NCBI GenBank assembly: GCA_030264375.1
Contig: JASCQW010000119.1
Coordinates: 7,543,711-7,607,710 of the forward strand
Direction: 5' to 3'
From: Carcharhinus longimanus
Taxonomy: Eukaryota
DNA length: 64,000 nucleotides
How positions within the stretch are numbered: the stretch's first letter is position 1; each line of letters opens with the position of its first letter. This document shows, piece after piece, positions 15,496-58,259 of the stretch. Position numbers and translations under genes: made by a program. A model generated the notes under the pieces. The model saw only the letters and a program-made list of their open reading frames with translations, had not been told where the DNA came from and searched no databases.

Positions 15496-15792
15496 ATGGC
15501 CCCTATGATTTGATGGTGAAGTCTGAACCACGATTCAAAGTTAGTGAAGGAGTGTTCGCTGCTGGCAAAGGAGAACCCGTCTGGTTTAAATGTTCAGCAA
15601 ATTCCAACCCACCAAATGTCTATTCGTGGTTCCAGAAAGCTGACAACAAGACAACACCCATCCAGTGGGGGCCAGTGTTAAACATCAGGTCTGAGAAAGT
15701 ACCCGAGAAAGCCGACTACATGTGCTGTGTCTACAACAATATCACTGGCAAACGGGATGAGACTCAATTCACTTTCATACTCTCTGCTACAG
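15496..15792 (+). CDS. HEPACAM2: Internal Ig-domain exon (297 nt, phase 1-1), third Ig domain of HEPACAM family member 2
   Basis: ttttcAG|...|GTatgt; reads (Y)GPYDLMVKSEPRFKVSEGVFAAGKGEPVWFKCSANSNPPNVYSWFQKADNKTTPIQWGPVLNIRSEKVPEKADYMCCVYNNITGKRDETQFTFILSAT(G). Recognised against HEPACAM2 motifs YGPY, CSADSHPPNTYSW, SEKV and DYVCCAYNNITGRQDETHFT. Confidence 0.88.
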
Positions 15793-18050: not shown

Positions 18051-18056
18051 ATTGAA

Positions 18057-23200: not shown

Positions 23201-24908
23201 AATCGAGAACTCACCATTATCAGTTAGTATTCTGTTTTCATTTCCAATGCTTTGATAACTCCATAATGAAATAATACATTTCCAATGTGTTGCACTCATC
23301 ACAGTTGTAGCTCAGTGTTTCGTGTCAGAGATCCCCACAATGTCAGGGTTGTCGCCAAGGTTGAGTATTTAATTTCAGTTTGTGGCCATTTACTTCCAAA
23401 TGTTTTTCATTTCAAAACAAAATAAAAAACATATTCAGCATATTTCTCTTGCTCCATACAGAGGTGACAGCGTGCAAAAATGGAAAGGCATCTATATCCA
23501 GAATCTATTTTCATTTTGAGTGTGGAATGGGAGATTCTGAACGCTTGTAACAAAGGATCTATCTGAAATGTCCAACGTAGTTGTTGCATGTAAATTCATC
23601 TAATTCAGGTTATGCATTAGCCGTGACAAAAGAATTGAAATTCGCAGGCGTTATTAATAATCGGTGCAACGCTGCTCATTTTACAAATCAGTCACATGTT
23701 TAATGGACGAGAAGCAAAGAGTGCAAGCTTTGTTCAAAAACACACAGACGTGTCTGTTACGTTGCCTATTATCGAGTAAGATGAGTAAATTAGTCCACAG
23801 ATGTGCAACAAGGGATACAATGTGAACGCGAGAGACAAAGACCTAAGTGGATTCAATCGAACGTAGAAGAAACGGTAGCGAAACATATTGCAAAATCAAC
23901 AGATGAATGAGATCGAACAGACAATTTATATTGGTTAGAGAGGCAGAAAAGTAGCTGAATTCTGGGACAGAAATGTTTTCCGTCATCCCATACACGGGAG
24001 AGAGAGAGAGAAAGAGACGAAAGGAGTGAGTGAGGGAAATAATTACCAGAAAATGTCCGCCCGAATAATTCGAACGGTCAGCAGAAATATAATATTTTTT
24101 TTCTTGTGCTGTGTCTCGAGGTGATGCCAGTATTACGCTCAAACTCTATGTCGGCTTTCAAAGTATGCCCCGAGTAAAATTTCCGCACAGTTCTTTTTCA
24201 CGTGTCGTTGTTATTCAAGGGCGTAAATCCCTGAGTGTTTTCTTGGATTGGCATTACTGGCGTTGAAGGAACTTCCCTTATTTTAGTGCAACCTGTAAGG
24301 GATGGTCGAGACGCTTGGCCTCACGAAGTAACATGTATTGCTGTCATTTTGTCATGTGGGTTGAAATCATTTTTGCAACGAGCACGAAGACATCCCGGGC
24401 GAAACAGTGTCTTTTCATTTGTTTAATTTGTTTTTTATTTGGCATGTGGTTCGTGCAGGTTTTTGTGCGTTTATGCAAGAATCCAGCAATCATCAGGCCA
24501 AATCTTGCTTAACTCAATTCTGGCAAATTCTGTCTATTTATATGTGTATTCTTAAGAGTGCCTCTTCCGTAATAAATAGGTATTACTGCTATTCTGTGGA
24601 CAACATTTTATGAAATATATTCGCTGGCCAGGCCAGCCTGTCCATTCCACCTTGTCCATGAAAAGTTGTTGGTGATCTGCAATTTTGTACTGTTGAAGAC
24701 CCTGAGGTGCACACGCACAGAGATAGAAACGCGCGCGCGCACACGCACACACACACACACACATTTAAGGAATAAAACACGCACATTAAAATAATTTAGG
24801 GAATAGTAAAAAAAAAGCTCTTCCACCGTGAAAAACAGAAAACTGCTGACTAGCCACAATGTCCACGCTCGTCATAATCTTGCATACTTCTATCAGTACG
24901 CTCCCCCG

Positions 24909-36224: not shown

Positions 36225-36245
36225 ACTTGACAAAGTGCCAATCTG
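36225..36245 (+). CDS. 21-nt heptad micro-exon B1, (D)LTKCQS
   Basis: tttatgctccacAG|ACTTGACAAAGTGCCAATCTG|GTaggg. Confidence 0.8.
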
Positions 36246-37289
36246 GTAGGGATGACGTCGATTCATTTTGACTGTCGTATTGGTTTGGTCTGTTTTATTT
36301 TGGCACGTGTATTAATTGATTGCACCAAGCTCTTTTTTTCATCCTATGTGCCAATCAAAAGATGAAATGTACGTTATCAAACTGATGACTCACTCGAAAT
36401 TGATATTTTCAGTGGAAGGGTGAAAGATTAATGACATGTTTGCATTCAGACGTACAATCGGCCTCAGTTATAGCGCGTCGGCAGCGTGGCATACATACAC
36501 TTTATTAGAATTCCGTACTGCAAGTGATGCGAAAGGGATTCCAAAATAAAACATATGATCAGCAAATTGGGCTAAGGAAAACGGAAAGACGATACGATCT
36601 GAAATGGCATGAAAACAGCACATCAAAGCTTGTTAGTACACGAGGACAGGAGAGGCAATGTTATCGGGGCGTCTTGGTAGTGATAGTTTCTGTGCATGTG
36701 TTTGTTTGCCGGGGCACACAGACGGGAGCGGTGCATTTCAGGTGGAAGCAGAAGAGAGATCCTTTATTTTTGTAGTGGAGACATTTCTATAAACAAAAAA
36801 GGAGATACTAAAAGACAAACGTGGAGACATTCATAAGGAGACGACGAGATTTTTTTTTGTTACAAATCAAATATCACATACAACAAATGAATTACGAAAG
36901 GTAAAGACGTCAATGCCAATACCCATCGATATACAAGGGCGAGCAAATCGGAATCCAAACTACATTCATAGTGCTCATTTGAAATTGTATTAATATATAT
37001 CGATTTATCGAAAATCTGAACATGTGATGAAATTCAACTCCACATAAATTTGAGAATAGTAGCCGATCTATTTAAGCCACACTTCGCTCTGCACCTCTTA
37101 GTTCCCCTGAATCAACGAGACTTACGCAAATACCGAACTTGTTTAGTTTGTTTATGACTATCATAATTAACCTTAAAGAAACACTGCTAAGAATTGACTG
37201 TGGAACTTCAGGAGCCGCCTTGCTGCGGCGACTGTTCAGATATAATAGATAGAATAGAAATAGAATACAGCACGGCTGATTGCATTAAG

Positions 37290-38220
37290 AGCCCTGCCTC
37301 TTATGGCTGTTGACACAGAGATGAGTGGGAAAGCAAATTGGGTGGAGGACGCAGACTTGGATAGGCTGAGTGACTGGGCGAGGATCTGGCAGATGGAGTA
37401 TAATGTTGGCAAGTGTGACGTTATCCACTTTGGAATAAATAATAGTAAAATTGACTATTATTTAAGTGGTGATAAATTACAACATGCTACTGCGCAGAGG
37501 GACCTGGCGGTCTTTGTGCATGAATCACAAAAAAAAAAATCTCGGTTTGCAGGTGCAGCATGTGGTCAAGAAGGCAAACGGAATGTTGGCCTTTATCGCG
37601 ATGGGGATGGAGGATAAAAACAGGGAGGTCTTGCTGCAATTGTACAAGGTACTGGTGATGCCGCAACTAGAGTACTGTGTGCAATTTTGGTTCCCTTAAG
37701 GATATATTGGCCTTGGAGGGAGTGCAGAGAAAGTTCACCAGATTGATACCAGGGATGAGGGGATTAGCTTATGAGAAGACATTGAGTAGCTTGGCCCTGT
37801 ACTCGTTGGAGTTTCGAATGCTGAGGGGAGATCATATAGAGACATATAAGATAATGATGGGGCTAGACAGGGTAGAGGCAGAGATATTATTTCCACTTAG
37901 AAGGGAAACAATAACTAGAGCGCACAACCTCAAAACAAGGATGAATCAATTTAGACCAGATTTGAGGAGGAACTTCTTCTCTCAGAGGATAGTGAATCTT
38001 TGGAATTCTCTGCCCATAGAAGCAGTGGAGGCTACCACGTTATATGTGTTTAAGTCACAGGTATATAGATATCTGATCAAAAAGGGAATTAAGGGTTATG
38101 GGGGACAGGCGGGTATGTGGAACTGAAACACTATCAGATCAGCCATGATCTTATTGAATGGCGGGGCAGGTTCGAGCGCTGGATAGCCTACTGCTGCTCC
38201 TATTTCTGATGTTCTTATGT
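37290..38220 (+). mobile_element. 5'-truncated CR1 inserted in unit 1 of the array, splitting the old SINE
   Basis: ORFs 37303-38126 (DLDRLSDWARIWQMEYNVGKC, LEYCVQFW, RRNFFSQRIVNLWNSLP); absent from the paralogous site at ~41090. Confidence 0.93.
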
Positions 38221-38910
38221 TTTCAGATTGTGGGAGGAAACCAGTGTAGTCGGAGAGAACCCACGCAAACACAGGGAAGACTTGTAGGCTCCACAGGGAC
38301 AGTGAGCCAAGTCGGGAACTGAACGCTGTTACATTATATTTTGAGGATTTCACAGGAACTACTGTGCCAATGCGTGCCATGACCACATGTCTGAATGAAA
38401 ACAAAATCCAAACAGGTAATATACTTGTATCAGGTATCTTCTGCTTGTGCACTTATTGGTAATGCACAAGTACTCGAAAACTAGATCTCACTTTTGAACA
38501 TTGGAGAAGAATGCAATTACATTAACAAATTTACACCTGACTATTCAGTTGACCCGGAAAATACAATTGACATGATTACTCAATAATTGCAAAGTTGTGT
38601 TTTTCAATTTATAGATCTAAAAAGAGCATTTACAAGAACATATTGATCTAAAAAAAGCTCTTCAAAATGCAGTCTCTGAAATTGGAACACTACGTCCATT
38701 TTTCTATGACATTGTTTCCAATGAAGTCACTATAAATTATTCAATATAATAGTGACAAATTGGAGGCACAATAAACCAATTCTCCTTTATTTTTCAGTCG
38801 TTGTGTTAATGCTCAACCTTGGATTTACGTTTTATATTGTTGGGTATTGTTTGACAATAACAAAATGAAAAATATGTCGATGCTCACACGAGTGTTTCTA
38901 TGCTCCATAG

Positions 38911-38931
38911 AACTTGCAACACGCAATTCTG
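38911..38931 (+). CDS. 21-nt heptad micro-exon B2, (E)LATRNS
   Basis: tatgctccatAG|AACTTGCAACACGCAATTCTG|GTaagg. Confidence 0.8.
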
Positions 38932-39416
38932 GTAAGGAAGCAAACACAAAAATCCGACAACTGGATCTTGGGAGATATCAGTAGAGTTCATCGGACGTAT
39001 CAAGTGTTCTAATTGCCTGACAAGAAGGCACAAAGTGTTCGAACATCAGGCTGTTTGCAATGGACACTTCATTGTTGGCCCAGACGAATAGATTCTATTC
39101 CTGTATGTTTGTCGCAATTTGGCGCCTATGGGTTTCTCCAGAGATACAGAATAGGAACCTTTATTTTGACGTCTGAAAACCAAGCAAAATCCATCGAGAG
39201 ACTATATTAAAAAAGTAAATATGAGTACTTAATAATGTTCTGTTATCTAAATCGCTGACCTAATGGATGCTCAAAGAAGTTATACACCTTTTGACTATTT
39301 AACATGAAATTTGAGCTGTGTATTTCGTTTTAATGTATTTGTGCTGTTACTAATATTCCAAAAAAAAACCCAAAATCTGTTCTCTACCTTATACATATAT
39401 ATCTTATGCATCACAG

Positions 39417-39437
39417 ACCTGTCAAAGTGCAGAAACG
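39417..39437 (+). CDS. 21-nt heptad micro-exon B3, (D)LSKCRN
   Basis: gcatcacAG|ACCTGTCAAAGTGCAGAAACG|GTagga. Confidence 0.8.
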
Positions 39438-40212
39438 GTAGGAAATTACCAATCCATTGTGGAATATATTGATAATGACTGTGTCACTTTCGGAGAGATT
39501 GTACCTGAGTTACGAAAAATGCAATTTAATGTGTGTCTATATATATACTTAGTCTTTCAATTTCTTTACAAAGTTGTCATGCGTCATTGATGTACGTCTA
39601 AAAATTTCACTGAGAGCTGAACTGTTGAATACCGTTTTCATCGAGAATGTGAAAGGGTGAAAGAATGACTGATTGATAAGTGAGTTGTGGATCTTTAATA
39701 ATCAGAGAGACGAGTGTTTTTTATGCGTACGCAGTCTGAGATGTGAACGTGAAGTTTACGAACAAAGAACTACAAGTAAAGACACATTTTCAAGCTGGTA
39801 GAGATGACCTCGATTCATTTTGTCTGACGTATAGGTTTAGTCTTTCTTGTTATGGCATATGCGTTAATTGCACTGCGCCAAATATTTTTAATTTCCTATG
39901 TCTAAGCCGGAAGATGAAATGTACGTTCTCAAGCTGATGGCTCACTTTATTATTATTATTTTTATTGGAACGTTGAAAAACTAACAACATGTTTATATTC
40001 AGACTTCCAATGGACTTCAGTTATGGGGCGTTGGCACTGACATCCCATGTATTTTCTTAAAACTCTGCACTGCAAGTGATGCGAAAGCGAAAGTGATAAA
40101 AAATAAATATATGATCGGCAAATTGGGCTAAGGAAGACAGATAGATTACGTGATCTGAACTTGCATGTAAACAGCACATCAAAGCCGTTTAAATGCACGA
40201 GGACAAGAAAGA

Positions 40213-40547
40213 CAGTGTTACCAGGCTGTCATGATCGCGATAGTGCACGTGCATTTGTTCGTGTGGCGGGGCACACAGGCAGTTTTACCAGGATGTCTTG
40301 ATACCGATAGTGTGTGTGCATTTGTCTGTTTCGTGGGGCACACAGGCGGTGTTACCAGGATGTCTTGATAGCGATAGTGTGTGAGCATTTGCTTGGTTAG
40401 CGGGGCACATAGGCAGTGTTACCAGGATGCCTTGATAGCGATAGTGCGTGTGCATTTGTTTGTTTAGCGGGGCACACAAGCGGTGTTACCAGGATGTCTT
40501 GTTAGCGATAGTGTGTGAGCATTTGTTTGTTTAGCAGGGCACATAGG
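40213..40547. repeat. Minisatellite, 5 x 67 bp
   Basis: Units begin at 40213, 40280, 40347, 40414 and 40481 (c[a/g]gtgttaccaggatgtcttgatagcgatagtg...ggggcacacagg). Confidence 0.95.
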
Positions 40548-41799
40548 CGGTAACGGGGATTTTGGAAGAAATAGAGAGACCTCTAGTTTTTTTTTTATTT
40601 GTAGCGGGGAAATTTCTATGCACAGGCAAGAAGCCACTGACAGACAACGGTGGAGACATTCATAGTGAAATGACGAGAGTATTTATCACAAATCAAACCT
40701 CATATACGGCAAATTAATTATGAAAGTTAAAGACTTCAATGCTATTACATATTGATATTGGGAGGCTGAGAAAATAGGAATTCAACAGACATTCAAAGCC
40801 GCTCATTTGCCTTTTATTAATATTTATGCGAGCGAAAATCTGAACATGTGATGAAGTTCAACTCTACGTACATTTGAAAGTAATAACACATCCATTTAAG
40901 CCACACTTCGCTCTGCACCTCTCTGTATTCTTGAATCAACGCGACGTACTCCAATAGCGATCTAGTTTAGTTTATTTATCACTCTCACGATTAACCTTAA
41001 ATGAACACTGTTGTGAATTGACTGTGGAACTCCACGAGCCGCCTTACTGCGGCGACTGTTCAGATATAATAAATGAGAATAGAACACGGTCATTGGAATT
41101 TAGAAGCACGCCTTTCAGGTCGTAGGTGGAAACCAGTGCAGCCGAAGTGAACACATGCAAACACAGGAAGGACTTGCAGGCTCAACAAGGGCAGGTGAGC
41201 CAAGTCGGGAATTAAACACAGTTGCATAGCATTTTGAGTCTTCCACACGTAATACTGTGCCACTGTGCGGCATGAGCTTACGCCTGAATGAAAAAAAATC
41301 AAATATGTAATATATTTGTATCATTTATCTTGCACCTGTGCACTTATTGAAAATGCACAAGTTCTCGAAATCTCGACATCACTTTTGAAAATTAGATGAA
41401 AAAGCGAATAAATTAACATAGCTACTCCTAACTGTTCAGTTCACCATTAAAACATGATTGACATGATTACTAAATATTGGTTAAGTTGTGTTTTTTTTTA
41501 CCGTTATTGGATCGGAAAACAGCATTGCCAAGAACATATTGAAATAGAAAAAAAAACTTCAAAAATCAAACTCTGAAAGTTGGAACACAACGTTTTTTTT
41601 TCCTGTCGCTTTGATTGCAATGAACTCACTCTAAATTATTCAGTATAATCGTGACACATTGGAGGCATAATAAAGCAATTTTCCTTTACTTTCCAGTTAT
41701 TTTCCCAATGCCGAACCTTGGATTTACATTTTATGTTGCTGGGTGCTCTTTGACTATAAAGCATGTAGATTCTCACACAAATCTTCTCATGTTCCATAG

Positions 41800-41820
41800 A
41801 ACTTACATCATGCAACAAAG
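41800..41820 (+). CDS. 21-nt heptad micro-exon B4, (E)LTSCNK
   Basis: catgttccatAG|AACTTACATCATGCAACAAAG|GTaagg. Confidence 0.8.
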
Positions 41821-42298
41821 GTAAGGAAGCAAAACAAAAATCCAATAACTGAGTCTCGGGCGAAATTAGGAGAGTACGAACGGTCGTGACAAGTTCTCTT
41901 ACTGCCTGGAAATAAGGCACAGAGTGTTGGATCAGCAGGCTGTTTGCAATGGACTCTTCAGTCTTGGCTTCGAAGGAGAGATTCTATTTATCATTGTTTG
42001 GTGCAGTTTGGCGCCTACGCGTGTCTGCACAGATACAAAATAGGTACCTTTATTTTGACGTATGAAAACCAGTAATCATCCATAGTGAGACTGTAAGAAA
42101 ACGAATACTAAATAATGTCCTGCAATCTAAATCGCGGACCGAAAGAATGGTCAAAGAAATCATACACATTTTGAATATTTAATTCGAAAATTGACTGTTT
42201 TATTATCTCTTTTTATTCTTCTGGGGCTATTGTTAATATTCCTAAGAAAACTGAATCTGTTCACGACGCTGACTATGTATATATTTTGTGCATGACAG

Positions 42299-42319
42299 AC
42301 CTGGCAAAGTGCAAAAGTG
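42299..42319 (+). CDS. 21-nt heptad micro-exon B5, (D)LAKCKS
   Basis: gtgcatgacAG|ACCTGGCAAAGTGCAAAAGTG|GTaaga. Confidence 0.8.
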
Positions 42320-44316
42320 GTAAGAAATACAGAGTCCATTATGGAAGCGACTGTGTCATTTTCGGAAAGTTTATTCCTGAGTTATGCCGAATATATATGT
42401 ATTTAATGTTATAAATTTAATAATTGGCAGGGCATCAATGGCTTTACCGAAGTTGTCATTCGTCATTGATGCAAATCTAAATGTTGCACGGAGAGTTGAA
42501 CAACGTTTTCATCCAGAATGCCAAAGATTGAAAGAATGACTGATTGCTAAGTGAGTTGTGGAACGTTGATAGTCAGAGGGACGAGTGCTTTCTTTACTGC
42601 GTGCACAGTTTGAGATACGAACGTCAAGATTACAAACAAAGAATTGCAAACAAAGACTCAGGGCCAAGCTGATAGAAATGATCCAGATTCATTTGTACTG
42701 TTTTCCCCCGTTCCATTGTGGCTTATGGACTTAGTGTATTATGCAAAAAAACCCATAATATATACTATATATATATTCTACCTGTATGTCAAACTATGAA
42801 AGGTATATTATCAAACCGATGTCTCACTCTAAATTGCAATTCGTCAAACCGTTAAATGTAGAGCTAAGTGCCGTTTTCACTCGGAGGATGGAAGATTGAT
42901 ACACATGTCTGCATTCAGATTTACAATTAACCTCAATAATGACGTGTTGGCAGATTCACTTTCTTCAGCCTCTATATTGCCACCGATGGGAAAGTGAACT
43001 TGATACACAGACACGGGCAAATGCAGAGGGAGAGACAGAGTGCTATCCGAAAAAGAGTTTTGATCAATGATGATGTGTGCACATTGGTATGTATGACAAT
43101 GTGCGTGGGTAGTGCTGAGGCTGCTAAATTGGAAACATTTTGTGGAAACATTTTGTAATGGACTCAACAAGCGATTGACACGTAATTGTGGAGAGAGAGA
43201 GACAGTGAGAAGGCGATCGCGTTCGTTACAAATCAAAAATTAGATACATCAATTGAATTACCAAAGGTAAAGAATTTTAAAGCATTACCCATCGACATAC
43301 TGAGTGTGAACAATGGGAATCCAGCAACCGTTCAAAGCTGTTCATTTGCCATCTATCGAATATTTAGAAATATAGAACAGAGAACCTGAACATGTTCTAA
43401 AATGCAATGCGTCCGAAATTTGAGACTAATTCTCTAGCCATTTAAGCCACAATTCACCCTGTACATCAAGACATTCTCCAATACTGATCCTTTTTTTTTA
43501 ACTGTCATAATTAAACATAAAATAACACAGGAGTGCAGTGACTGTGGAACTCCCCTGATCAGCTTATACCGACGCCTGATCTAACGACATGAGGGAGAAT
43601 GGAGGACGGCCAATGGATTTAACTAGCACATGTTTCCGACTGCGGGAGAAGTCAGAACAGCTGGAGGAAACCCACGCAAACACGGGGAGAACATGCAGAC
43701 TGCGGATGGACAGTAAGCAAAGTCATGAATTCAACCTGGCACCCTGGCACAGTGAGGCAGTCATCCTAACTACTATGCAACTGTGCATTCTTAGCATCTT
43801 TTTGAAAGGTAAAAGAAAGAATCCAGAGACACAATACATTTATATCCTCTTTACTGACCTTGAATATTTATTATTACAGAACACGATCCCAAAAATAACT
43901 CGACCTTTTTTTGAACTTTCGATGAGAAATATATTAATTTGATAAATTTTCTCCTGACCGTCCAGTCCATCTGTAAAAAAAAAATGGTTTAATCCCCAAT
44001 ATTGGTGCTTTTTTTCCCCGTTATTGCACCCCAGAACAACAATATCAAGAACGTATCGAAATCAAAATTGCTTCAAGTTGGCAACGCTACATGCATTATT
44101 CTGTTGCTTTATTTTCATTGAAATCGTTATACATGACGCAACATATAGGTGCTCAATTCGACGCATCATCAAACTGTGTGAATCTTTGTAATGTACTTTC
44201 CAGTTTCTTCGTCAATGTCCAACCCTGGATGCCTGATTCTCAGTGTTGGACGTGTTTTTATCTGACAAAATAGAATATATGCAGATATTCACAAGTCTTT
44301 CCTTGTACCCTCACAG

Positions 44317-44337
44317 ATCTAGCAAAGTGCAACAGTG
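44317..44337 (+). CDS. 21-nt heptad micro-exon B6, (D)LAKCNS
   Basis: gtaccctcacAG|ATCTAGCAAAGTGCAACAGTG|GTaagg. Confidence 0.82.
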
Positions 44338-44810
44338 GTAAGGAATCACTGATAGGGAAATAGATAACCGGATATTGGAAGAAATAGTAGAAGTCGATTG
44401 GGGATGACAAGTGTCCTTACCGACTGGCATCAAGGCTCATTGGCACGAGAAGCAGAGTGTTGGAGCAGCAGGTTTTTGACAATGGGCTTCTTCATTATCG
44501 GCCTGGGCGAACAAATGCAGCATCCTTGACGACTCGAGGTCACACCAAAGCTAGAGAATAGATACCTTTAGCCCGAGGCATGAAACCAAGGCACATGCAT
44601 GGAGAGGCAAAAAAAAACGAGTACTTAATAAAATCTTGCAATCTAAATCTCTTACCTAATGAAAATTCAACGAAAATGCTCGAATTTTAGCGACCTATCA
44701 TCAAATTCGAGTTTATCAATTTCTCTTCACTGCAATTGGGCTCTGATTAATGTTCCTAACAAAACAGAATGGGTTCATTGTACTGATTGGATGTATCTTA
44801 AGACTCACAG

Positions 44811-44831
44811 TGCTGGCAAAGTGCAACAATG
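44811..44831 (+). CDS. 21-nt heptad micro-exon B7, (V)LAKCNN
   Basis: agactcacAG|TGCTGGCAAAGTGCAACAATG|GTaggg. Confidence 0.78.
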
Positions 44832-46269
44832 GTAGGGAACAAGTAATTCAGTATAGATTATGTTGATAGAATTATTTCAGTAAAGATATATTGATACCTT
44901 ATATTGACAGAGAGTTTTAAAAACGTTTCTTCTTAAATTATGCAAACTATTTTTGAATGTCTGTATGTAAAAAAAAAACAGAGTATCAAATTGATGGCTC
45001 AAGCGAAGTTGACATTCCTTATTACTATAACGTTCTTCGGCGAGTTGAATGTCATTTTCATTGAAAACGCGAAAGGTTGAATGAATGCCTGATTTCAACA
45101 CTTCAATGTAGATGAGTTGTGGATCTATAATAGCTTGAGAGACGAGTATTTATTTTTTAATCCGTGCACAGCATAAGATGTTAGGTTGGTTGCAGACGAA
45201 GAAAAGAACATATTGAAGAAATGAGCTTCATAAAGGGGAAGGAGATTATCATTTCGTAATGGCAGACTCCCTAGGGTCTTAAAAAGAGATAACAATAAGG
45301 ACATTAAGGTGTAAAATGCCTCAGATAAAGATAAGCTGTATGTTTGTGTGTACTTGTTTTCAAGTGGTTGGGAAGCGTACGGTAGTGGCAAAGGTACAAT
45401 GTCAGAAATGTAGGAAATAGGTTAGAACAGGAGAGAGAACTGTACAATCTATGAATCAAAGAAATAAATAGACACGTAACCTATAGCTGCCCACAGTTGT
45501 GGAGGTCAATGCATATAGAGAGATAACTACCATGTTCATCAGATAGCAAGCCGCTGATACAATGAAATGATGCGTTAATATTTATAATTAGGCACAAAGA
45601 ATGATTGTAGGAATACTTATACAAGTTTGAACATCGCATGTTGTTAACTGTCAGATGGTGAGCAGAAAATTCATAACTGTAGGATGAAATATCTATTTGT
45701 TTTAAAATGGCAATGAATTCCTTGAACATGTACTCAACTTCAATGTCTACGCAAATGAAATGGAAATTGTTCACCCATTTAACCTACAATTCTCTGTAGC
45801 TCTTTCTACTATAAAAGGCAGGAGGCATGTTCCTTTCCAGATTACCTTCCATCAGGGGAGAAACAGAATTTTCAGATACGCAAAGTGTGTGTTCTGTTGT
45901 CACGAGATGGAACTCACCTGAGTTACCTCCAAAACATCTCAAAAATCTATTCTCACCTTTTGGCAAGCTAATTGAGAAACAATATTCCATAAATGCTGCT
46001 GCTTGTTAAGATTCATTCAAACAGCCATAACTTTGGCTTAGTTATTAAACACTGCTGCAATTTAATGAGATCTCAAAAAAAATTAGAAAAAATTAAATTT
46101 TCCTGAGGAAATCACAGCCGCCTTCATTATTTTACGCCCACTTCTTGTTTTCCCCTCTCCGTTCATTTTCTTTGCCGAAGAATTCACGACAAACAATACG
46201 ATCCCATCATTGTGAAAGCGGATGCATTTTCAACCATGAGTAATAGAAATTTACTCCTGTCTTATCCAT

Positions 46270-49200: not shown

Positions 49201-49750
49201 CCTCAGAAATGTCCCCTTTCAGGACAGCTGTGATATCCTCCCGAAGCAGCAATGCAACTCATCTCCCTTTCTTACCTTTTGTTCAATATTTCCTGGAACA
49301 TCAATGGCTGGAAGTTTATTCATCCACGCCCTGAGTTGATTTGCCTTGTCCTGCAGGACTCCTGCAATGAAATGCATTTCATTTAATCAACACTTCCCTG
49401 ACTCTTCACCTACATTTTCCTAAAGTGCCTAATGTCGGATTGCTGCTCTGACCTCTAATGTTAAACCTGCACTTTTCAACTTCCATGTTGTCCTCAGCAT
49501 TTCCTTCTGTCTCCTTATTGCTTTGTCTCCTAAAACTTCACCAAGCTATGTTAAACCTTCAGATTCGCAAGTGGAAATCTCCCTACCTGGTTTTTAGCCG
49601 TCCTTGTATTTAAATGTCACCCGTCCCTCTTGAGCATGTCTCAGAAGAGGTGTCAATGATCAACACATTTATGTATCTGTCCCGAGAACCAGCTCTCAGG
49701 CTACGCATTCATCTGCATAATCGCCATACGCCTACTGTGGCAGTAATCCA
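46270..49750 (-). mobile_element. Long degraded CR1 (3' UTR back to the ORF1/ORF2 junction)
   Basis: Antisense CR1 text throughout, e.g. ORF 46755-46979 LRSESQVDRVVK; endonuclease region at 48900-49300. Confidence 0.75.
48200..48657 (-). mobile_element. Penelope-like element 3' fragment (GIY-YIG C-terminus plus pseudo-LTR) nested in CR1
   Basis: Minus strand reads DLRVHSHQSGVHGTQQRSIPEKKLIARFYRHEDGRNWDLGFMSRYL*; terminal aagtccaacaggtttatttgg and atgccggcattggactggg motifs. Confidence 0.8.
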
Positions 49751-50417
49751 GATTGAAGCCGTATTCTTAATTTAAAGTTCGTACTTCAAATTCTAGTTGT
49801 GGTTGTTGATCGTTATTGTTCATCTTTCTTTATGCCGATAACAAAACAGAAAACAAAACACAAAATTTTTACAAGTTTTCCATTATTCTCCTCAAAACGT
49901 TCGACGTGGATACTGGTGACGAACTAAAACATTGATGACTTTGTCGTGGAGCGCCTGACAGGGTGCAGCGTGTGATTTTTCCTAAATCTAACCACAAAGT
50001 GTGTTGACAATACTTTTAACACGAATTAAACATCTCTAATTCGGGTTTCAGTGAGTATCTCAGACCTATTTGGAGTGGTAGTGAATGCCGGCTAGTTTAC
50101 TAGTGCAACAAACCTCAAGATAAACTGAGGTGCACAACATTAAATGGCAGTGATTAGGTGATGATGCACAACATTACACTGGGCAACGTATGAAGCTTAC
50201 GTATGCAGAGTACAGTACTATTGTGAGAGACTCAGAAATTCTAGCGAATGACATTTCTTAAAGGTGAAAAACGCTTACTTTTAGCAAAAAAATAATTGAA
50301 ATGACAGTTGTTAGGAAATTGTTGTGGATCTCTCTTCCAGAACACTGACGATCCCCAAGATGTCGTACACGCACTTTGAGCGTTGTGTTCAGGATAATGT
50401 TGACATCTGCAAAGTGA

Positions 50418-50500
50418 CGTGTGTGTGTGTGTGTGGTGTGTGTGTGTGTGTGTGTGTATGGGGGGGGGGGTGGTGGGGGAGGCGAGTGTGTGTGTGTGTG
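50418..50500. repeat. Compound (GT)n/G-rich microsatellite
   Basis: Direct reading; other simple repeats at 21615-21645 (TCTG), 24731-24763 (CG/CA), 25511-25533 (GT), 54440-54466 (AT), 58283-58317 (ATT). Confidence 0.9.
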
Positions 50501-51599
50501 TCGGGGGTGGGAGGGTGGTGGAGGGGAAAAAGGCATCCACACAAGCTCAGTTTTCATTGCGTACTCATAATGGCCTTGGTGCCTCTAAGTGTCTTCCTTG
50601 GCCATCTCAGTAAGCAGTTGAAAGTCAACGAATTTGTATTGCTCTGCAGAACCGTAGATCCATGTAGATGACACCAGTTCAGGACAACAGACTTTGTTCT
50701 CTCATGACATGAGTGAACCAGATATGTTTTCATTCATTTGACTATAGCGAATTTACATCAGTAGGTTCTTACTTCCAAACTGATTTTTTTTAATTCAAAT
50801 GCCAAAAGCGGATGTGTCGGGATTCAATACCAAATCCCCAGAATATTCGTTGAGTTTCATGATCATCATTCTCGTGATACAGTACGTTGCCGTTACAGAA
50901 TCGTGAGGAACAGAAACTGTGAAATGAATAACGATGTACAAATGAAAAAAAAAATCTATTTAAAATGCAATTGGAAGTGGTTACACTTGTCTTTTTAGAT
51001 GTTTGCGTTGACAGTGGGTCATCCGGAAGCACGCAAAATGGAAACAAAAATTACCGAGGAGTGTGGTCAATGCGCACAGAACAGCCACCAGACCTGAAAA
51101 CCGACGAGGAGCTTCAGCATTAAGAGTGAAGTGATGAACCTTGTTAGAAATATTATTATATTTGGAATGTTACACACAAGCAGACAGGTAGATTGGATTA
51201 AATTTGAACAGTAAAAGAGAACATTATTTCTCGCACAGTTTATGTATGCTATATATGTATATATATATATATTCTATAGTTAAATAGGGAGTAAATAGTT
51301 TTGTTATACTTGTGCTGGTATTGCAGCGCGTCCTTTTTTTGTCATTGTCCATGTGCTACTCTCCGACTTTCACTCACGAAACAAAGCCACGTTTTTACTG
51401 AAGGTTTAAAACGCTGACAAGAAAGCAAACTGACCAAATTTCCATTTCGGTATATACAGTACATTCTAAACTGTACACTGGATCGTTCAATGTAAGATAT
51501 TCACGCAGAGACAACTCTCACATAAAGGGCATGATTTTGTTGCGTTGAGCAGATTGCAAACTCTTCGTTATGGCAGTTTCAATAAAGCGCTTTTCAATA

Positions 51600-51831
51600 A
51601 AGTGATCAAGAAGGCAAATGGAATGATGGCCTTTATAGCGAGGGGGGTAGAATGTAAAAGCAGGGAGGTCTTGTTGCAACTGTACAGAGTACTGGTGAGG
51701 CCGCAGCTGGAGTAGTGTGTGCTGTCTTGGTCGCCGCACTTGCGGAAGGGTATATTGGCCTTGGAGGGAGTGCAGAGAAGGTTCACTAGGTTGATACGGG
51801 AGATGAGGGGGTTAGCCTATGAAGAGAGACT
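51600..51831 (+). mobile_element. Young CR1 fragment running into the gap
   Basis: KANGMMAFIARG..LYRVLVRPQLE..SPHLRKGILALEGVQRRFTRLI. Confidence 0.93.
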
Positions 51832-53189
51832 NNNNNNNNNNNNNNNNNNNNNNNNNNNNNNNNNNNNNNNNNNNNNNNNNNNNNNNNNNNNNNNNNNNNN
51901 NNNNNNNNNNNNNNNNNNNNNNNNNNNNNNNGAAGGAAATTGAGGAGCAGAAGTATTGTATGATTGCAAATGAAAATACATGTCAAGGTCATGAAGCTGC
52001 AACATGATTTAAAATGCCATGCTGGAAGAATAAAGCTATACGGTTTGCGTAGTCATCGATATAGACCAAAGGAGTATTGTACAGTGCTGATGTTCAAGTA
52101 GATCACAATTATTTTCCTTTGCGGCATAACAGCAACGGTTATCACTAAAAACATGAATGTAAGAAATACTGACAAAAAATATTTAAAAAAAAATGATTTT
52201 GCCAAGTAATAGACAAATAAACCGAAGAAGATCTAGAATAAACAAACAAATGAATATAACGCATTGGAACAGAAATAATTCTTAGCGGATCCACTGGAAA
52301 CATGTTTGAAAGTCCCAGCAAACTAGAAGGTGTAATTAAACTGCTCGACACAGAAGCAAAGGACAGAAGACAAAAAAAAAAATCCACAAGTAAAGTGACC
52401 TGCTGGATGGTCCTAAATCACGTATGTGAACTTCAGAAAATGTGCTAATAGGGAAGCTTTCCTGGACAAAGTCCTCGAGCAGTTCAAACTTTGGACATTT
52501 TGGCACTGTGAGCACGGTTTAGACACAATGGAAGAAATAATAATGCAACTCAGATGCGTTTAGTTTCAGTTTTCTTCCAATATGTACTGTATCCTTCTGA
52601 GTCTACCGATTTCTGTGAAGAATTGCCAGTAATGAAATACAACCGTGACAAGGAAACTGGGCTTGTACTTGGGATTAAATCAGGATCAAGAGGAAACAAA
52701 GATTTTGAAACGGGAAAAGAAACAGCTGAAAAAGAGCAGCGTGTGGACAAAAGAATACATAGAAAACATGGTTGTTGATGGTCAATTTAAATGTTTATCG
52801 AGGAAGAAGAAATATTCAATTTTGGCGTGAAATGACTTCAAACGAACACACTGTTGTTTTATTAGCCGGATTTATTTTAATAAAATATGCCTATATATTG
52901 TAGAACACTAAGAATATGAAATCAGAGTTTCTGAAGAAATCTTGCAGGTTCTTTTTTTTTTGGGGGGGGGAGGGTGGCTGGTGGGGTGGGGGGGGATGTT
53001 TGTTGGATGTGCCGATACTTTGTCTTTACAAAGCATACTTAACACTGTATTTCTAGTTGAGGATGTGCACATACAGCAGCTCTATTTAACAATGGAAAAT
53101 TACTACCAGTAACAAACTTCATGATGGGCATGCAGAAGGACAATTGTTCCTATTAACGTGTGCGTTAATTTTAATCTGAACTCGTACAG

Positions 53190-53921
53190 TGTGTAATACT
53201 TAGGATACCTACTGCTTTTCAGAGTAGTATTGAATTATGGTGAGGTTCATGTGAACATCTGGATTTATGCTAATTGCCAGAGAAGAAAATAAAACAAGAG
53301 GCTGTTACAGTTTCCAACTCGGACAGAACAATAACAATTTCTATGTCGTTGTTCCTCTATGTATTTCTGGAAGTTGAAGTCTAGGACCAGCTAGCAAAAT
53401 TGAATCTCTCTGCCGAAGAGTGAAAAGTTCAAAAGTGATTGCACCTTATCCCCACCCCTCTCCTTCTGTCGTGAGTCATGCGTTGTGAGGACAGCTTAAT
53501 CTTTATCTCTGGAGTTCCTCTCTTTGTGACGACAGCTCGTTCTCTGAAGAAGACTATGTGAGAATCAGAAGGCAGATGTCCAGTTATACTTCTGCCTAGG
53601 TGCGTTAAGAGACTGGGGTAGAGGCTAATGGCATAAGTCTGTGTGTTGTCCGAATCGATTGCGTAGAAGTTTATGTCTGTAGAATATTACTTACCATATC
53701 ATATTTAAATAATTCATTTCGTTAAAAAATGTACATCTTTCTGTTCTGTTTCAATTGTGTTGTGAAATAACGATTGTTTCAACAATAACTTCCGAAATTG
53801 ACTGTTGAATTACACGTGGAAAGTAACCCGTTATGTTCTTACTAATGTCTAATTCAAGTAAATGTTTGGCATTAGTTTAACATAATTAAACATCTTAGGA
53901 CTTCTGATCCGGCGGCAAACA
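53190..53921 (+). mobile_element. Possible eroded solo LTR
   Basis: Starts tgtaatac, ends ..ggcaaaca, LTR-like composition; no TSD found. Confidence 0.3.
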
Positions 53922-55259
53922 TATTGATACACACATAATAGTGACGCGAAAATATGGGGAAATACTTAATGTTCATAACTCAACAGAGAAAGATGGAGTT
54001 AACAAGGCGGATTGCCCTTTACGCAGAGAAAAGTTTCGTTTTTTTTTTAATTTAATTTCGCTAATATGCTATCTTTTCGAATTTTTGAAAAAAAAAACAA
54101 ACCCAACGCATACATTTTACTGATTGTACGCAATTGAAGAAGGTTCCTGGGCACATATTTTTTACTGTCCATCTTTTTTTTCAGAGTTAGCATTTAAGCC
54201 TCAACATTTAATCGAAACGACTTCCGTTATGTTTCTGCAGTTTAAAGCTATTTAGAAAGCTTTCCTTGCTGCAGTTACGATCATTGCGAAATTGTATCAT
54301 ATGGGAGATATCGCAGCTATGAAAAACTGTTCTGCTACGCTGTGAAATGAAACGAACATCTGAAGTCAGGCATTAATGTTTAATGTATTTAATATTTACA
54401 CTGTTTAAATGGTGCCGGTAAGAAAAGCCCAACACAGAACATATATATATATATATATATATATATGTACCTCTGCGTCGTTCAGTGAGAAGCTGGCAAG
54501 CTGTGCCTCCATTTGACTTGAATCAACCTAACGACTCAAATCAGAAGGTCGCTGCTTGTTTCGGCATGGAGCTATCTAATTTGTTAAAAAGTAAACTATT
54601 TTTAGGAACACTAACTGAACTGGTTATACAGACATCATTATTGCTAACACGTTCCAAGAAAAAAAACATAGTATTTACCTGATGGTGATTCTGTGAAATG
54701 GTATATCTCCGGCAACAAGTTTTTTGTCAAGCATTGCCAGCAGATTTCCAATCACAGCTATCTCTACAGGGCCAAGGGCGCAATGAGTCCGAAAAAAAAA
54801 GTAAAAGCTTAATTTGCATTTTAGACTTTCAACGAGACAGGTAGTTCAAAGCAAATATGTAATTCCAGATTTGTGTTCTAGAAACAAACTTATTTGGTGT
54901 CAGTGCAGGTTTTTTTTTCTAAATAGGAGCAGAAGTCAGATTGTTCCGTTTAAATAGTCGCAGAAGTTGTGTGTCCCAAAATTGATTCGGGACATTTAAT
55001 GGATAATAAGCAGTTGAAGGATCAAACTGTACTAACTAATGGGAAGTGCTATCAGCATGAGTCTCTGCACCACATCCGAATAATGACCAGTTAAAAAGTT
55101 GCACTTTTCAACATGTGTTGAAATATACAATGTTTACAGCAAATTCGCGCCCAGAAATACATATTATAAATGCGTATCAAGCCCACGGGCTAACGTGAAC
55201 GAGCACAATTGTTGTTGGATAGAAAGGCACAATAATGAACATTGGGTTTTGAGAATGAA

Positions 55260-55990
55260 AAACTGGAAGCAGGAGGAGAATATTGGACCCTTCGCTCTGC
55301 TCTGTCATTCGTTTTGATTATTTGAAAACACGAGGTTTGGGGATGTTGCTCCTCGCTCAGTTGAGGGACTCACCTGAGGAAGTCGCAGCAACCTGAAAGC
55401 ACTTGAGTCTATATAAATCTGCTGGGCTCTAGTCTGGACCAATGAGATTCTTACTATTTCCATTTTGATCAAGGGTGATCATCGAATCCAACATCCTGAC
55501 ACTCGCATTCACTCATGACCCTTGATCACTTCAGACCGAACAGCAAATTATGTTGTTTCTTCTGAAATCAGGCAAGATTGAGGCCTCAACCTCCTTCGGT
55601 AGCAGTCAATTCCAAAAGATTTGCCACCGTCTGGATGAAGAAATGTATCATCACCTCACTTCAAATTAGGATATCCCTTATCCTCATCTATGGCCCCTAC
55701 TTCTGGACACCCCCACAATTGGCAACATTCTTTCTGAACTTAACCCGCACAACACTGTTAGATTTGTATATGTTTCGATGAGATCCGCTCTCACTATTCT
55801 AAACTCCATTGAATATAATCTTAACTGATTAAGGTTCTCCTCATGTGACAGGCCTACCATCCCAGGAATCAGCCTGGTAAAACCTTCCTTGTACGCCCTC
55901 TGGAGTCAGGACATCCTCCCTCAGATTAGGACACCAAAACTGCACAATGAATGGCCTCTAGCGGCCCTAGTTTAAAGCTAAAAATCCCTA
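55260..55990 (-). mobile_element. CR1 3' fragment containing an inverted pair of Penelope pseudo-LTR pieces (55320-55455)
   Basis: Antisense CR1 3' text; cacctgagga..gaaagc preceded by its diverged reverse complement. Confidence 0.65.
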
Positions 55991-56645
55991 TTGTCAACGG
56001 CTATCACACAGCCTAAAAAACGACATCTGAAAGATATCACTGTGTCTTCAAGCTGATGTACAAAATTGCATTTTAACGTTGTTGCGGAATGTATATGATT
56101 TCAAAAAAAAAAATGAAATGGTCTCTCTTCACAGATACTGACAGGACTGATGGATTTATCCCATATTTTCGATCGTCTTTAAAAAAAAAATCAATTCTCA
56201 GTCTTCCAGTTGCTGAGACACAGAACAACTGATTACCCCGCAAAACAATCTAATTTCCATTTTCAATTCTTCGTAGTGGAGGATTTTTTTTTTTTTGAAA
56301 CTTTTGGGGATATCTCATTTCCATCACTTCGTGGATGGATTTTCAGATGATTGCACAAATCATTGTGGATATTTACTTTTCTTCGTGATAGTTTTAAAGA
56401 CATTAAATTTATACTTTGGATTTTATTGTACGCACCCTCAATGGCGTTATGTCCACCAAAGTCGTATGTTACTGTACTTTCTCGGAAGTCGAAAAACAAA
56501 GAGATAATGAAAACATCTTAACCTCACAAAATATTCTGATGAAAAATGCAATGCATTCTCAGCAACATTTCAATCAATCGACAAAATTGAATTTTCTAAT
56601 TTGCTTTTCTATCGTTTGTTTGTTTGTGATGTTTCCACCACCTAG

Positions 56646-56666
56646 ACCTGAAGAAGCGCACCGATG
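56646..56666 (+). CDS. 21-nt heptad micro-exon C1, (D)LKKRTD
   Basis: tttccaccacctAG|ACCTGAAGAAGCGCACCGATG|GTaagg. Confidence 0.75.
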
Positions 56667-56774
56667 GTAAGGCTGATTTAAACTCAACATTTATTTGCCT
56701 CAAATTAATATTGCCTTTTTATTGGCAACAAAGATTTCTGCCATGTCAATTTATATTGCTATCTACTGTGTCGT

Positions 56775-57010
56775 CTGTGGCAAGGTGGCACAGCTGGTAG
56801 AACTGCTACATCACTGCACAAGGGACACACATTCGTTTCTGACTTCGGGTGAAGGCCTGTGTGAAGTTACACACTCTTCCAGTGACCGTGTAGAATTTCT
56901 CCGGGTGCTCCGGTTTGTACTCAATGTTCCGGTGAGGTAGATTGGCAATAGTATTTTGTCCCTTAGTGTCAGAGGAATTGACATGGCAAATCCTTGGGGC
57001 TACGGTGATA
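56775..57010 (+). mobile_element. Eroded tRNA-derived SINE
   Basis: gtggcaaggtggcacagctggtagaactgct head; ttctccgggtgctccggttt core. Confidence 0.7.
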
Positions 57011-58238
57011 CCTAGATTTATCTGTGCATGGCCTTGTACTAATTCAATGATACTACATGTCATAAAGTTGGAAGTCTCTAACTATACAGCAGAATTAAAT
57101 TGTCAATCAGTTATTCCTACAGAGACCAGAGAATAAAGCCAATTAAGGCAGAGGATAAGGCTATCCGGCCCTTCCAGGCCTGCAACTACTTTGCCACCCG
57201 ACAGATCTAAAACCATTTACCCTTCCAGGAACGATGTAGCTCTATTCCCATCATATTCATTGATCTGACTGCGAATTCCAGGCACCCACTACCCGCTCTT
57301 AAAAAAAATCTCGAACTTCCAATGTTGGGGTAAAAAAAAACGCTGACAAAAATAATTACACAGAAACTGCGGCAGCTTTGTCAAACTGACCAATTCGCAA
57401 ATGCATCAACACAAAAGTTTAAAAGGTGTAAATAACAAAGAATTGTGGAACTGACGAATGGATACTAAAAAAAAACTTTCACCTCGGAGTGGATGGACTG
57501 TAATTGGAAAAAGAGTCAACATTCTTCATTAATTTTCTTCAAACACGACCTTAAATGTTCTCAGCACAGATCAATTGCAGAGGGATTAATATGCCGCAGT
57601 TTAACGAGGGGACCACGTTACACACTGAAATCACAATCTGGAAATTCTGATTGCTTGTCTTCCTTTCAGAGAGTCGACATTCTGCAGTTCCCTCGAATTA
57701 GAGTTTATCTCTGAACTGATGTTGTCACTTCTGATTATTTATAATGCACGATTAATTGTGCTGCTCTTGATTCAACACTCTCGCAAACATGGTGTTCCCG
57801 ACAGAAGTGAAAGATTACACTGCCTCTCAGATGCAACACAGCATACTTAATAAGTGATTGCAATGCAATTCACCAGGGTGATGTAAATGCCAGAAAATCT
57901 GAAATGTTATACTGACATCGGTCATATTATCCCTGTTGAAATTGTGTTGATCATATCATGATAGCACCAAGGACGCTATGACGTAAGATTGAACGGGGAA
58001 CAACACCTTGTGACGTGTTAATAAAAAATCCCTTATCAATTTGTTGCAAACGCATTGTGCTGGATAAAAAAAAAAAATACTGTTATGAACCATGCCGCTT
58101 GAGCCCTGCCATTTAGCTTTTCCTTCCTTCTTCAAAATTCAGTCGAGGACTAAGATTTTACGTCAATGGATTCAGTTTGATTCGCTTAGAAATGTAATAT
58201 CTTCAAAATGTTCTCCTTAATTCTCTTCTTCCTCACAG

Positions 58239-58259
58239 AACTGACGAAGTGCCAAAGTG
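58239..58259 (+). CDS. 21-nt heptad micro-exon C2, (E)LTKCQS
   Basis: ttctcttcttcctcacAG|AACTGACGAAGTGCCAAAGTG|GTaagg. Confidence 0.85.

Follow-up and report, generated by a model that had tools for sequence, protein, structure and literature searches.

The question raised by this locus, a 64-kb stretch of the Carcharhinus longimanus genome on scaffold C119 (hereafter the window), is whether a handful of 21-nt plus strand segments are exons and, if so, of what kind of gene. A sequence-only reading had proposed nine such segments, and all of them (9/9) were recovered by us as 21-nt stretches in an AG-[21 nt]-GT arrangement in phase 1-1, with the expected GTA[A/G]G donors and terminal G in every case (9/9). 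Their peptide translations agree with those given earlier, and the joined segments contain no stop in phase 1 versus 4 and 5 stops in the remaining frames. The acceptors are CAG in six segments and TAG in three, but the description of all of them as pyrimidine-rich fails at 44811 (score -0.4) and 42299 (0.7). A gap at 51832, said to separate the last two exons, actually lies upstream of both 56646 and 58239. While all nine segments look real, the list was incomplete, since five extra 21-nt exons are present in the window. The micro-exons and one related copy are as follows.

36225..36245, plus strand: 21-nt phase 1-1 micro-exon, first of the original nine
38911..38931, plus strand: second 21-nt micro-exon; opens a two-exon unit of 2.5-2.9 kb that is found three times
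39417..39437, plus strand: third 21-nt micro-exon; second exon of the 2.5-2.9-kb unit
41800..41820, plus strand: fourth 21-nt micro-exon; duplicate of 38911, intron identity 79%
42299..42319, plus strand: fifth 21-nt micro-exon; duplicate of 39417, acceptor score 0.7
44317..44337, plus strand: sixth 21-nt micro-exon
44811..44831, plus strand: seventh 21-nt micro-exon; weak acceptor (-0.4)
56646..56666, plus strand: eighth 21-nt micro-exon; flanks repeated 16.8 kb downstream, beyond the window, copy intact
58239..58259, plus strand: ninth 21-nt micro-exon; duplicated further downstream at window-relative 76976, where the copy carries AA instead of the acceptor AG
6436..6456, plus strand: extra 21-nt phase 1-1 micro-exon, absent from the earlier list
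7775..7795, plus strand: extra 21-nt micro-exon
8614..8634, plus strand: extra 21-nt micro-exon, last base A, still phase 1; flanks akin to 10171 and 12706
10171..10191, plus strand: extra 21-nt micro-exon
12706..12726, plus strand: extra 21-nt micro-exon
23462..23482, plus strand: 21-nt copy of the array type with donor GA instead of GT; probably a dead exon (or a non-canonical site)

Overall, the plus strand of the window holds 17 AG-21-GT candidates, while 100 dinucleotide shuffles averaged 1.32 and never gave more than 5. These counts were obtained with a simple splice score whose thresholds were chosen after the exons were known and whose matrices are approximate vertebrate frequencies. 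At a stricter cut, 11 plus strand candidates were found at 21 nt versus 0-3 at each other length between 9 and 45 nt, and the minus strand yielded 1 candidate at 21 nt. Three of the 17 (19666, 28526 and 48281) did not match the pattern and were taken as background. The nine segments look like real exons, drawn from the central part of a shark gene of enormous size with some hundred or more tiny exons.

The array to which they belong spans at least 830 kb of the plus strand of C119 (7.277-8.107 Mb) and is divided into zones of 36/27-nt, 21-nt and again 36/27-nt exons, in that order. Over 834 kb we counted 36, 33 and 22 plus strand candidates at 21, 27 and 36 nt, respectively, against a background mean of 5.4 and maximum of 14 per class in 65 other length/strand classes; 27- and 36-nt exons are about as frequent as 21-nt exons, and 18-nt exons also occur. 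Phase 1 was open in 36/36 (21 nt), 32/33 (27 nt) and 20/22 (36 nt) candidates, 88/91 in total, compared to 24 and 24, 20 and 13, and 5 and 11 for the other two phases. Among 127 score-selected candidates, stops amounted to 1.0% versus 6.8-7.0% and Glu plus Lys to 25% versus 8-9% (minus strand control). Stop-free array candidates number 120, approximately 85-95 above background; the minus strand control gave 43 candidates, and about a quarter of the 120 may be background. These 120 fall into 103 flank families, so most of them did not arise by recent copying of a single unit. A collagen reading of the 27- and 36-nt exons was ruled out, given that they are open in phase 1 and not in phase 0 and are poor in Gly and Pro. 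The proposal of a hidden coiled-coil gene with one heptad per exon is supported by the array, but the gene would be far larger than nine exons.

The predicted peptide carries a heptad signature. The heptad lag statistic was 0.32 versus -0.001 +/- 0.046, a value reached in 0/1000 shuffles, and the controls gave -0.006 and 0.055 in the other frames and -0.03 to 0.01 on the minus strand. In 21-nt exons the hydrophobic fraction is 0.72 at codon 2, 0.50 at codon 5 and 0.19 at codons 4 and 7, and in 36-nt exons codons 2, 5 and 9 are hydrophobic. Leu occupies codon 2 in 18/36 of the 21-nt candidates, with all six Leu codons in use, and Cys is found at codon 5 in 8/36 of them and in 7/9 of the first-noted segments. 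The hydrophobic period is 3.50 for the nine first-noted exons (0/300 shuffles) and 3.55 for ten 36/27-nt exons (3/300 shuffles; 32/300 exon-order shuffles).

Comparison of the copies demonstrates that the putative array grew by tandem duplication of exon-intron units, with losses via single splice-site mutations. Nine non-independent duplicate pairs showed exon identities of 62-81% versus 46-79% for introns, and 24 non-synonymous versus 10 synonymous codon changes; exons roughly as diverged as introns, together with this excess, indicate weak constraint beyond length, frame and Leu. At least four look-alike copies lack one splice site. Such dead copies, and recent duplicates whose exons have diverged nearly as much as their introns, would fit a decaying pseudogene, or a single AG-21-GT unit multiplied by chance through tandem duplication. 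Neither accounts readily for one phase being open in 88/91 candidates, for three independent exon lengths, for strand specificity, for the 103 flank families or for the synonymous spread of Leu codons, and we assign this explanation a very small probability.

A single Ig exon lies among the micro-exons of the window and was considered as part of the same gene.

15497..15792, plus strand: third Ig exon of HEPACAM2, within a low-CpG segment at ~14.5-19.5 kb, not part of the array gene

CpG o/e is 0.29 around this exon versus 0.76-0.87 around the micro-exons, and the segment seems misplaced from scaffold C132, where the remaining exons of the gene are located at 65.7-65.8 Mb. HEPACAM2 as the Ig part of the array gene was ruled out: all matches (7/7) were to HEPACAM2 without heptad tails, and only 1 exon is in the window. 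Besides the gap at 51832, 100-N gaps occur in the window at 18872, 27957 and 33045. The array as a whole has 125 gaps with 80,472 N, a further 12,886 N separate it from a head-to-head array on the opposite strand, and array-type sequence is also found on the unplaced contigs C9584, C68428, C68460 and C11505. Array order and linkage hence depend on scaffolding, given the 125 gaps and the apparently foreign HEPACAM2 segment.

The head-to-head array is a mirror image on the minus strand, running leftwards from 7.183 Mb with 27-nt types at 6.817-6.840 Mb, and a third array is on the plus strand at 10.737 and 10.883 Mb of C119. SPRY exons on the scaffold, known by coordinates alone from a search in which 150 of 182 candidates were scored, are at 6.328 (-), 8.529 (+), 9.018 (+), 9.086 (-), 10.681 (+) and 11.288 (+) Mb; C81, not C119, holds the main cluster of SPRY and B-box matches. 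In 3/3 arrays the next downstream SPRY exon shares the strand of the array and lies 406-488 kb beyond the last exon observed; such agreement in strand has a 1-in-8 chance expectation. The same-strand SPRY exon is probably the 3' end of the array gene, to judge from this arrangement. For the main plus strand array, 422 kb lie between the last micro-exon (8.107 Mb) and the SPRY exon (8.529 Mb), and three pattern searches found no micro-exons in this interval. The 36-nt pattern search returned 4 C119 matches, all inside the 1.06 Mb examined (the window plus up to 500 kb on each side), and 14 elsewhere, mostly LINE-like; the 27-nt Cys pattern gave 13 matches versus 12 with the reversed control, 8/13 being on C119, of which 4 had been used for its design. 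A DNA search with 6.1 kb of distal-zone sequence recovered that sequence alone. Single-exon profiles run against their own model gave no match (21 and 27 nt) or -42.8 bits (36 nt), showing that short-profile searches are powerless.

The exons could be real yet belong to several shorter tandem genes, or to a coiled-coil gene without a SPRY exon, the megabase layout being a product of scaffolding. Three zones differing in exon length, the 125 gaps and the array-type sequence on unplaced contigs would fit such an arrangement, and the 422-kb interval lies outside the DNA examined. However, the minus strand paralogue repeats the order of 21-nt zone, Cys-bearing 27-nt types and SPRY, and within the examined array we found neither a SPRY, Ig or lectin exon nor a terminal exon bearing a stop. 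We consider this arrangement quite improbable. The best reading is a cluster of giant coiled-coil-B30.2 genes without a detected Ig, transmembrane or B-box exon.

The front end of these genes was also sought. The 1.06 Mb examined yielded neither an IgV, IgC or transmembrane exon of the array gene nor a RING or B-box motif. Its first exon, start codon and promoter were likewise not found. Pfam scans of ORF sets (7; 135; 147, comprising 106 upstream and 41/83 from the window; and 117/153) revealed the HEPACAM2 Ig as the sole relevant domain. Upstream of -255 kb, 117/153 unmasked ORFs of at least 95 aa (those containing both Cys and Trp) gave no Ig family match, and there was none in 282 plus strand ORFs from the window and within 100 kb of it. 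V-set matches on C119 were restricted to 1.15-3.63 Mb (150 scored of 928 candidates), and B-box was absent from C119 at 2.55-43.4 Mb among 114 matches (150 of 277 candidates scored), leaving the SPRY exons there without a detected TRIM front end. Signal-peptide and transmembrane scans gave nothing beyond background-like hydrophobic exon candidates (14/513), none convincingly placed.

These results bear on a true butyrophilin/BG-type membrane protein with transmembrane signalling, whose signal peptide, Ig and transmembrane exons would sit in gaps or misplaced contigs ahead of a giant tail and B30.2. Heptad exons followed by B30.2 are the butyrophilin tail layout, with heptad number differing among vertebrates (PMC8813856, PMC12841164), the 12,886 N between the head-to-head arrays could hide front exons, and the assembly did misplace one Ig exon elsewhere (HEPACAM2). 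On the other hand, front exons would have to be missing in both head-to-head genes, the two ORF sets contain no Ig match, the V-set matches are confined as above and the hydrophobic candidates resemble background; we consider a membrane protein unlikely. An extracellular rod, secreted or of type II membrane topology, with disulfides at heptad core cysteines and B30.2 or another head outside the cell, would be suggested by the codon 5 cysteines and by one 81-nt phase 1-1 hydrophobic exon candidate with strong sites 221 kb upstream of the array. This candidate is, however, 1 of the 14 among 513 and falls inside the minus strand paralogue, N-glycosylation sequons number 5 versus 4.5 expected, and overall Cys is only 3.5%. 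Cytoplasmic BG tails contain cysteine too (PMC5938342). Type II C-type lectin receptors with heptad necks have their lectin exons downstream of the neck, but Lectin_C gave 0/48 matches on C119 (119/119 candidates scored) and lectin motif scans were negative, although split lectin exons can be missed. This topology is quite improbable.

We favor, with somewhat better than even confidence, the reading in which the nine segments represent internal coding exons in the central zone of a single ~1.25-Mb gene (C119 7.277-8.529 Mb) made almost entirely of symmetric phase 1-1 micro-exons and ending in B30.2 (PRY-SPRY), with at least 2 adjacent paralogues of like layout. Its micro-exons would be spliced into one mRNA for a coiled-coil rod that dimerizes and measures at least 700-800 residues (>100 nm; perhaps 1,100-1,500 residues), possibly cross-linked via core cysteines and carrying two B30.2 heads. 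Such a protein may serve in the cytoplasm to sense or tether a ligand, in the manner of butyrophilin/TRIM B30.2 domains. With all exons frame-neutral, rod length could be changed by duplication, loss or skipping while the B30.2 head stays intact.

The suggestion of a BG/butyrophilin-like gene holds as the nearest design, with a same-strand B30.2/SPRY exon downstream, but membership is not supported: the 1.06 Mb examined gave no IgV, IgC or transmembrane exon, codons 2 and 5 are the hydrophobic ones, and the gene is far larger than nine exons, with 27- and 36-nt exons as common as 21-nt ones. Chicken BG genes encode a long presumed coiled coil from many 21-nt exons with the first codon split (phase 1), and have 27-38 repeats, IgV and transmembrane regions and no B30.2 as described (PMC5938342, PMC4046983, PMC8813856). 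They resemble the shark array in 21-nt phase-1 heptad exons, a few exons of other lengths, a multigene cluster and exon number varying by duplication, and differ in having hydrophobic codons 4 and 7. The shark array further differs in its ~85-95+ exons (21, 27, 36 and 18 nt) over >800 kb, with no Ig or transmembrane exon found and a predicted B30.2. Butyrophilins (BTN/BTNL) occur in cartilaginous fishes and have a heptad region of variable number followed by B30.2 (PMC12841164). This layout would be shared by the putative shark gene; BTN has IgV-IgC-TM and few heptads, in contrast to the predicted shark rod, which would exceed it in length by one to two orders of magnitude and for which no front exons were found.

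Guinea pig enterophilins have an extended leucine zipper of ~30 heptads and a C-terminal B30.2; their combination of a soluble long heptad rod with B30.2, lacking RING, B-box and Ig, is the layout predicted for the shark gene. Enterophilin-1 has been linked with SNX1 (PMC13749957). No RING or B-box was found near the C119 SPRY exons, in contrast to TRIM proteins, where both precede the coiled coil. The coil of TRIM proteins is short and comes from a few ordinary exons. In TRIM-B30.2 proteins the coiled-coil dimer displays two B30.2 heads for avid binding (PMC4455283). The predicted shark product would share this presentation of two heads on a dimeric coil. Schistosome micro-exon genes, mostly built of tiny symmetric exons with frame-neutral skipping, encode small secreted flatworm proteins; tiny symmetric exons are the shared feature, but these genes are not known to encode a long coiled coil or B30.2, and no homology is implied. 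A literature search covering few subscription journals listed no paper on such a shark gene, and a passage of PMC10665462 contains no statement on cysteines or exons. Added here are the 21-nt Cys zone and the gene cluster.

More tentatively, and with less than even confidence, cartilaginous fishes may possess a cluster of as many as six megabase-scale genes with well over 100 frame-neutral micro-exons apiece, encoding soluble B30.2 receptors on 150-200 nm rods without Ig, RING or B-box. These would form a third B30.2 receptor class in which the birth, death and skipping of exons diversify rod length, possibly a relic of the butyrophilin/BG tail module. If the favored reading is right, almost no exon exceeds 36 nt and the cluster, ~5 Mb of shark chromosome, is therefore invisible to ORF- or homology-based annotation. 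The BG one-heptad-per-exon design would then extend to a far larger scale, joined to B30.2, in the oldest jawed-vertebrate lineage, providing a natural test of the birth, duplication and death of butyrophilin-type heptad exons. The design principle is already known from BG, which limits the surprise. For the splicing machinery, around a hundred consecutive 21-nt-type exons amid multi-kilobase introns would be a demanding case.

The nine micro-exons of the sequence-only reading, at 36225, 38911, 39417, 41800, 42299, 44317, 44811, 56646 and 58239 (positions counted from the window start), were recovered as described. All nine are 21 nt long, preceded by YAG, followed by GTA[A/G]G and end in G, and joined they are stop-free in phase 1, with 4 and 5 stops in the remaining two frames. 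Scanning the + strand of the window for AG-21-GT candidates above a simple splice score returned 17, whereas 100 dinucleotide shuffles averaged 1.32 and never exceeded 5; other lengths and the - strand gave background levels only. Fourteen of the 17 share an x-Leu(Val)-x-Lys-Cys/x-x-x pattern. The original list was therefore correct but incomplete, as five of the 14 patterned exons (6436 to 12706) had been overlooked. The splice scoring used approximate vertebrate frequencies, and its cut-offs were chosen with the exons already in view, so the argument rests on the length, strand and frame controls. We are highly confident that the micro-exons are real exons.

The window, which covers 7,543,711–7,607,710 of its contig, proved to be part of a much longer run of phase 1-1 micro-exons. 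We scanned the window plus 500 kb on each side in an assembly of 2.68 Gb and 68,774 contigs, and on the + strand the array starts at -266.6 kb and reaches at least +563 kb, where the scanned DNA ends. Over this interval we counted 36 candidates of 21 nt, 33 of 27 nt and 22 of 36 nt (background across 65 other length/strand classes: mean 5.4, maximum 14). Phase 1 was open in 36 of 36, 32 of 33 and 20 of 22 of them, respectively; for the two remaining phases the open counts were 24 and 24 at 21 nt, 20 and 13 at 27 nt, and 5 and 11 at 36 nt. The array divides into three successive zones. Exons of 36/27 nt come first; the 21-nt zone (-140 to +205 kb, 39/43 candidates) encloses the window; the last zone returns to 36/27 nt, includes some 18-nt exons and near its far end frequently shows a grouping of 36+27+27+27 nt (39 codons). 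The score-only set held 127 candidates on the + and 43 on the - strand, and 120 stop-free + candidates make up 1,028 codons with no junction stops; hence about 85–95 candidates lie above background. Since these 120 fall into 103 flank families, the excess does not represent copies of one unit. Further exons were probably lost to the 125 gaps in the array (80,472 N) or fell under the score cut. A 21-nt pattern search of the assembly matched only 7.41–7.64 Mb of contig JASCQW010000119.1 (C119; 6 matches) and three small unplaced contigs. Small unplaced contigs bearing array-type exons or introns (C9584, C68428, C68460 and C11505) probably belong in the gaps.

Composition carries a coding signal. 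Phase 1 of the + candidates contains 1.0% stops, 25% Glu+Lys and 2% Pro, versus 5.9%, 8% and 6.5% on the control - strand. The proposed heptad pattern held across the 21-nt exons, with hydrophobic fractions of 0.72 at codon 2 and 0.50 at codon 5 (0.14–0.19 elsewhere), and the 36-nt exons reach 0.73–0.77 at codons 2, 5 and 9 and 0.41 at codon 12 (0–0.18 elsewhere). The heptad lag statistic was 0.32 versus -0.001 ± 0.046, a value reached by 0/1000 shuffles, and was about 0 in the other frames and on the opposite strand. All six Leu codons are in use at codon 2. The hydrophobic period was 3.50 in the nine exons and 3.55 in ten consecutive distal exons, as expected of a 39-residue repeat with one stutter, although exon-order shuffles matched the distal peak in 32/300 cases. 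In nine overlapping duplicate pairs, exon identity was 62–81% and intron identity 46–79%, and non-synonymous codon changes numbered 24 against 10 synonymous ones; both the near-equal identities and these changes count against strong constraint. So does the loss of a splice site in at least four copies: a 15th patterned copy at 23462 (donor GA), 76976 (AA for AG) and two on the - strand. Such divergence and dead copies are consistent with fast turnover of frame-neutral exons.

Conventional exons and related arrays in the window and on C119
Window 15497-15792: HEPACAM2 third Ig exon, 96-97% identity to shark proteins
C119 7.04-7.18 Mb (left-flank pieces L081-L100), - strand: second micro-exon array, eight or more 21-nt candidates plus two dead-donor copies
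C119 6.817-6.840 Mb, - strand: 27-nt Cys types
C119 10.737 and 10.883 Mb, + strand: 27-nt Cys types
C119 6.328 (-), 8.529 (+), 9.018 (+), 9.086 (-), 10.681 (+) and 11.288 (+) Mb: SPRY exons, among 150 of 182 candidates scored

The HEPACAM2 exon, the sole conventional exon in the window, was considered as a candidate for the micro-exon gene's Ig domain. The remaining HEPACAM2 exons lie on contig C132 (65.7–65.8 Mb), the 14.5–19.5-kb stretch has a CpG o/e of 0.18–0.42 versus 0.67–1.05 in adjoining micro-exon DNA, and repeat sequence borders it on both sides. Window 14500–19500 is thus probably a misassembled insert, splitting HEPACAM2 in this assembly, and the exon was ruled out.

The second 21-nt-type array starts at about -361 kb and heads away from the first, head-to-head. 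The 27-nt Cys pattern gave 13 matches versus 12 in the control, 8 of them on C119, of which 4 were training sequences. Each of the three arrays shares its strand with the nearest downstream SPRY exon (PRY-SPRY, or B30.2, domain), which lies 422, 488 or 406 kb beyond the last exon seen; three pattern searches found no micro-exons between 8.107 and 8.529 Mb. Position thus suggests an array-B30.2 link, the SPRY exons being known here solely as coordinates, and it is quite likely that the micro-exons belong to a giant coiled-coil gene with a terminal B30.2, whatever its anchor. The SPRY exons at 9.018 (+), 9.086 (-) and 10.681 (+) are tied to no array so far. On C119 there were no B-box matches between 2.55 and 43.4 Mb (150/277 candidates scored), no V-set matches from 3.7 Mb to the end among 150 scored of 928, and no Lectin_C matches. 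V-set exons and exons for other Ig domains cluster at C119 1.1–5.1 Mb, 1–5 Mb from the arrays.

Splice-type sites, reading frame, heptad pattern and unit duplication and loss are directly observable in this DNA. The exons would be spliced into a single message spanning 1.25 Mb. Its predicted product is a coiled coil formed by two chains, no shorter than 700–800 residues and perhaps 1,100–1,500; in the middle zone of the rod Leu would occupy position a and Cys frequently position d, and two B30.2 heads would sit at its end. A soluble cytoplasmic coiled-coil-B30.2 form is somewhat favored. Because no first exon was found, the product may instead be membrane-anchored and butyrophilin-like, or extracellular; hydrophobic exon candidates were at background (14/513) and sequons at chance level (5 vs 4.5). 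One 81-nt phase 1-1 candidate at -487716 (+, L100) combines strong sites with a hydrophobic stretch and is indistinguishable from background. For the cytoplasmic form, the likeliest role would be a binding module on a long spacer, acting as an innate sensor or tether, by analogy with TRIM20, whose coiled scaffold dimerises the B30.2 domains as required for binding (PMC4455283), and with BG tails, which include one isolated as a tropomyosin-displacing protein (PMC5938342).

The suggested BG/butyrophilin-like identity survives only in its tail-like working; register, exon number and exon lengths differ from those families. BG genes, a chicken MHC family, encode an IgV domain, a transmembrane exon and 27–38 heptad repeats; the 21-nt exons behind these repeats split their first codon and place hydrophobic residues at codons 4 and 7 (PMC5938342), in contrast to codons 2 and 5 in the shark. 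Butyrophilins are IgV-IgC-TM proteins with few heptads and B30.2 (PMC8813856) and occur in cartilaginous fishes (PMC12841164). The shark locus has far more exons than either, in three lengths, and no front exons were found. It also falls outside the TRIM family on RING/B-box, with no such motif in the 1.06 Mb scanned and no B-box near the arrays among 150/277 candidates scored. Enterophilins combine a long zipper with B30.2 and would come closest in layout. The literature searched contained no description of such shark genes.

The region has several other features. CpG o/e is about 0.67–0.71 across the whole array and up to 1.05 locally (window 6000–14400 and 35000–45000), which is high for vertebrate introns. 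A fold-back element at window 25772–26902, with inverted arms of about 430 nt that are 95% complementary, is probably a non-autonomous DNA transposon. LINE reverse-transcriptase fragments lie at window 18800–19600, 32800–33160, 37260–38230 and 51500–51830, three adjoining assembly gaps, and a retroviral env-like fragment (Pfam TLV_coat, E 2.3e-9) lies just upstream of the + array in the left flank (L059:115–486, -). Finally, an intron of the duplicated two-exon unit starting at 38911 contains five copies of a 67-nt tandem repeat (window 40215–40551), with one related copy at 36639.
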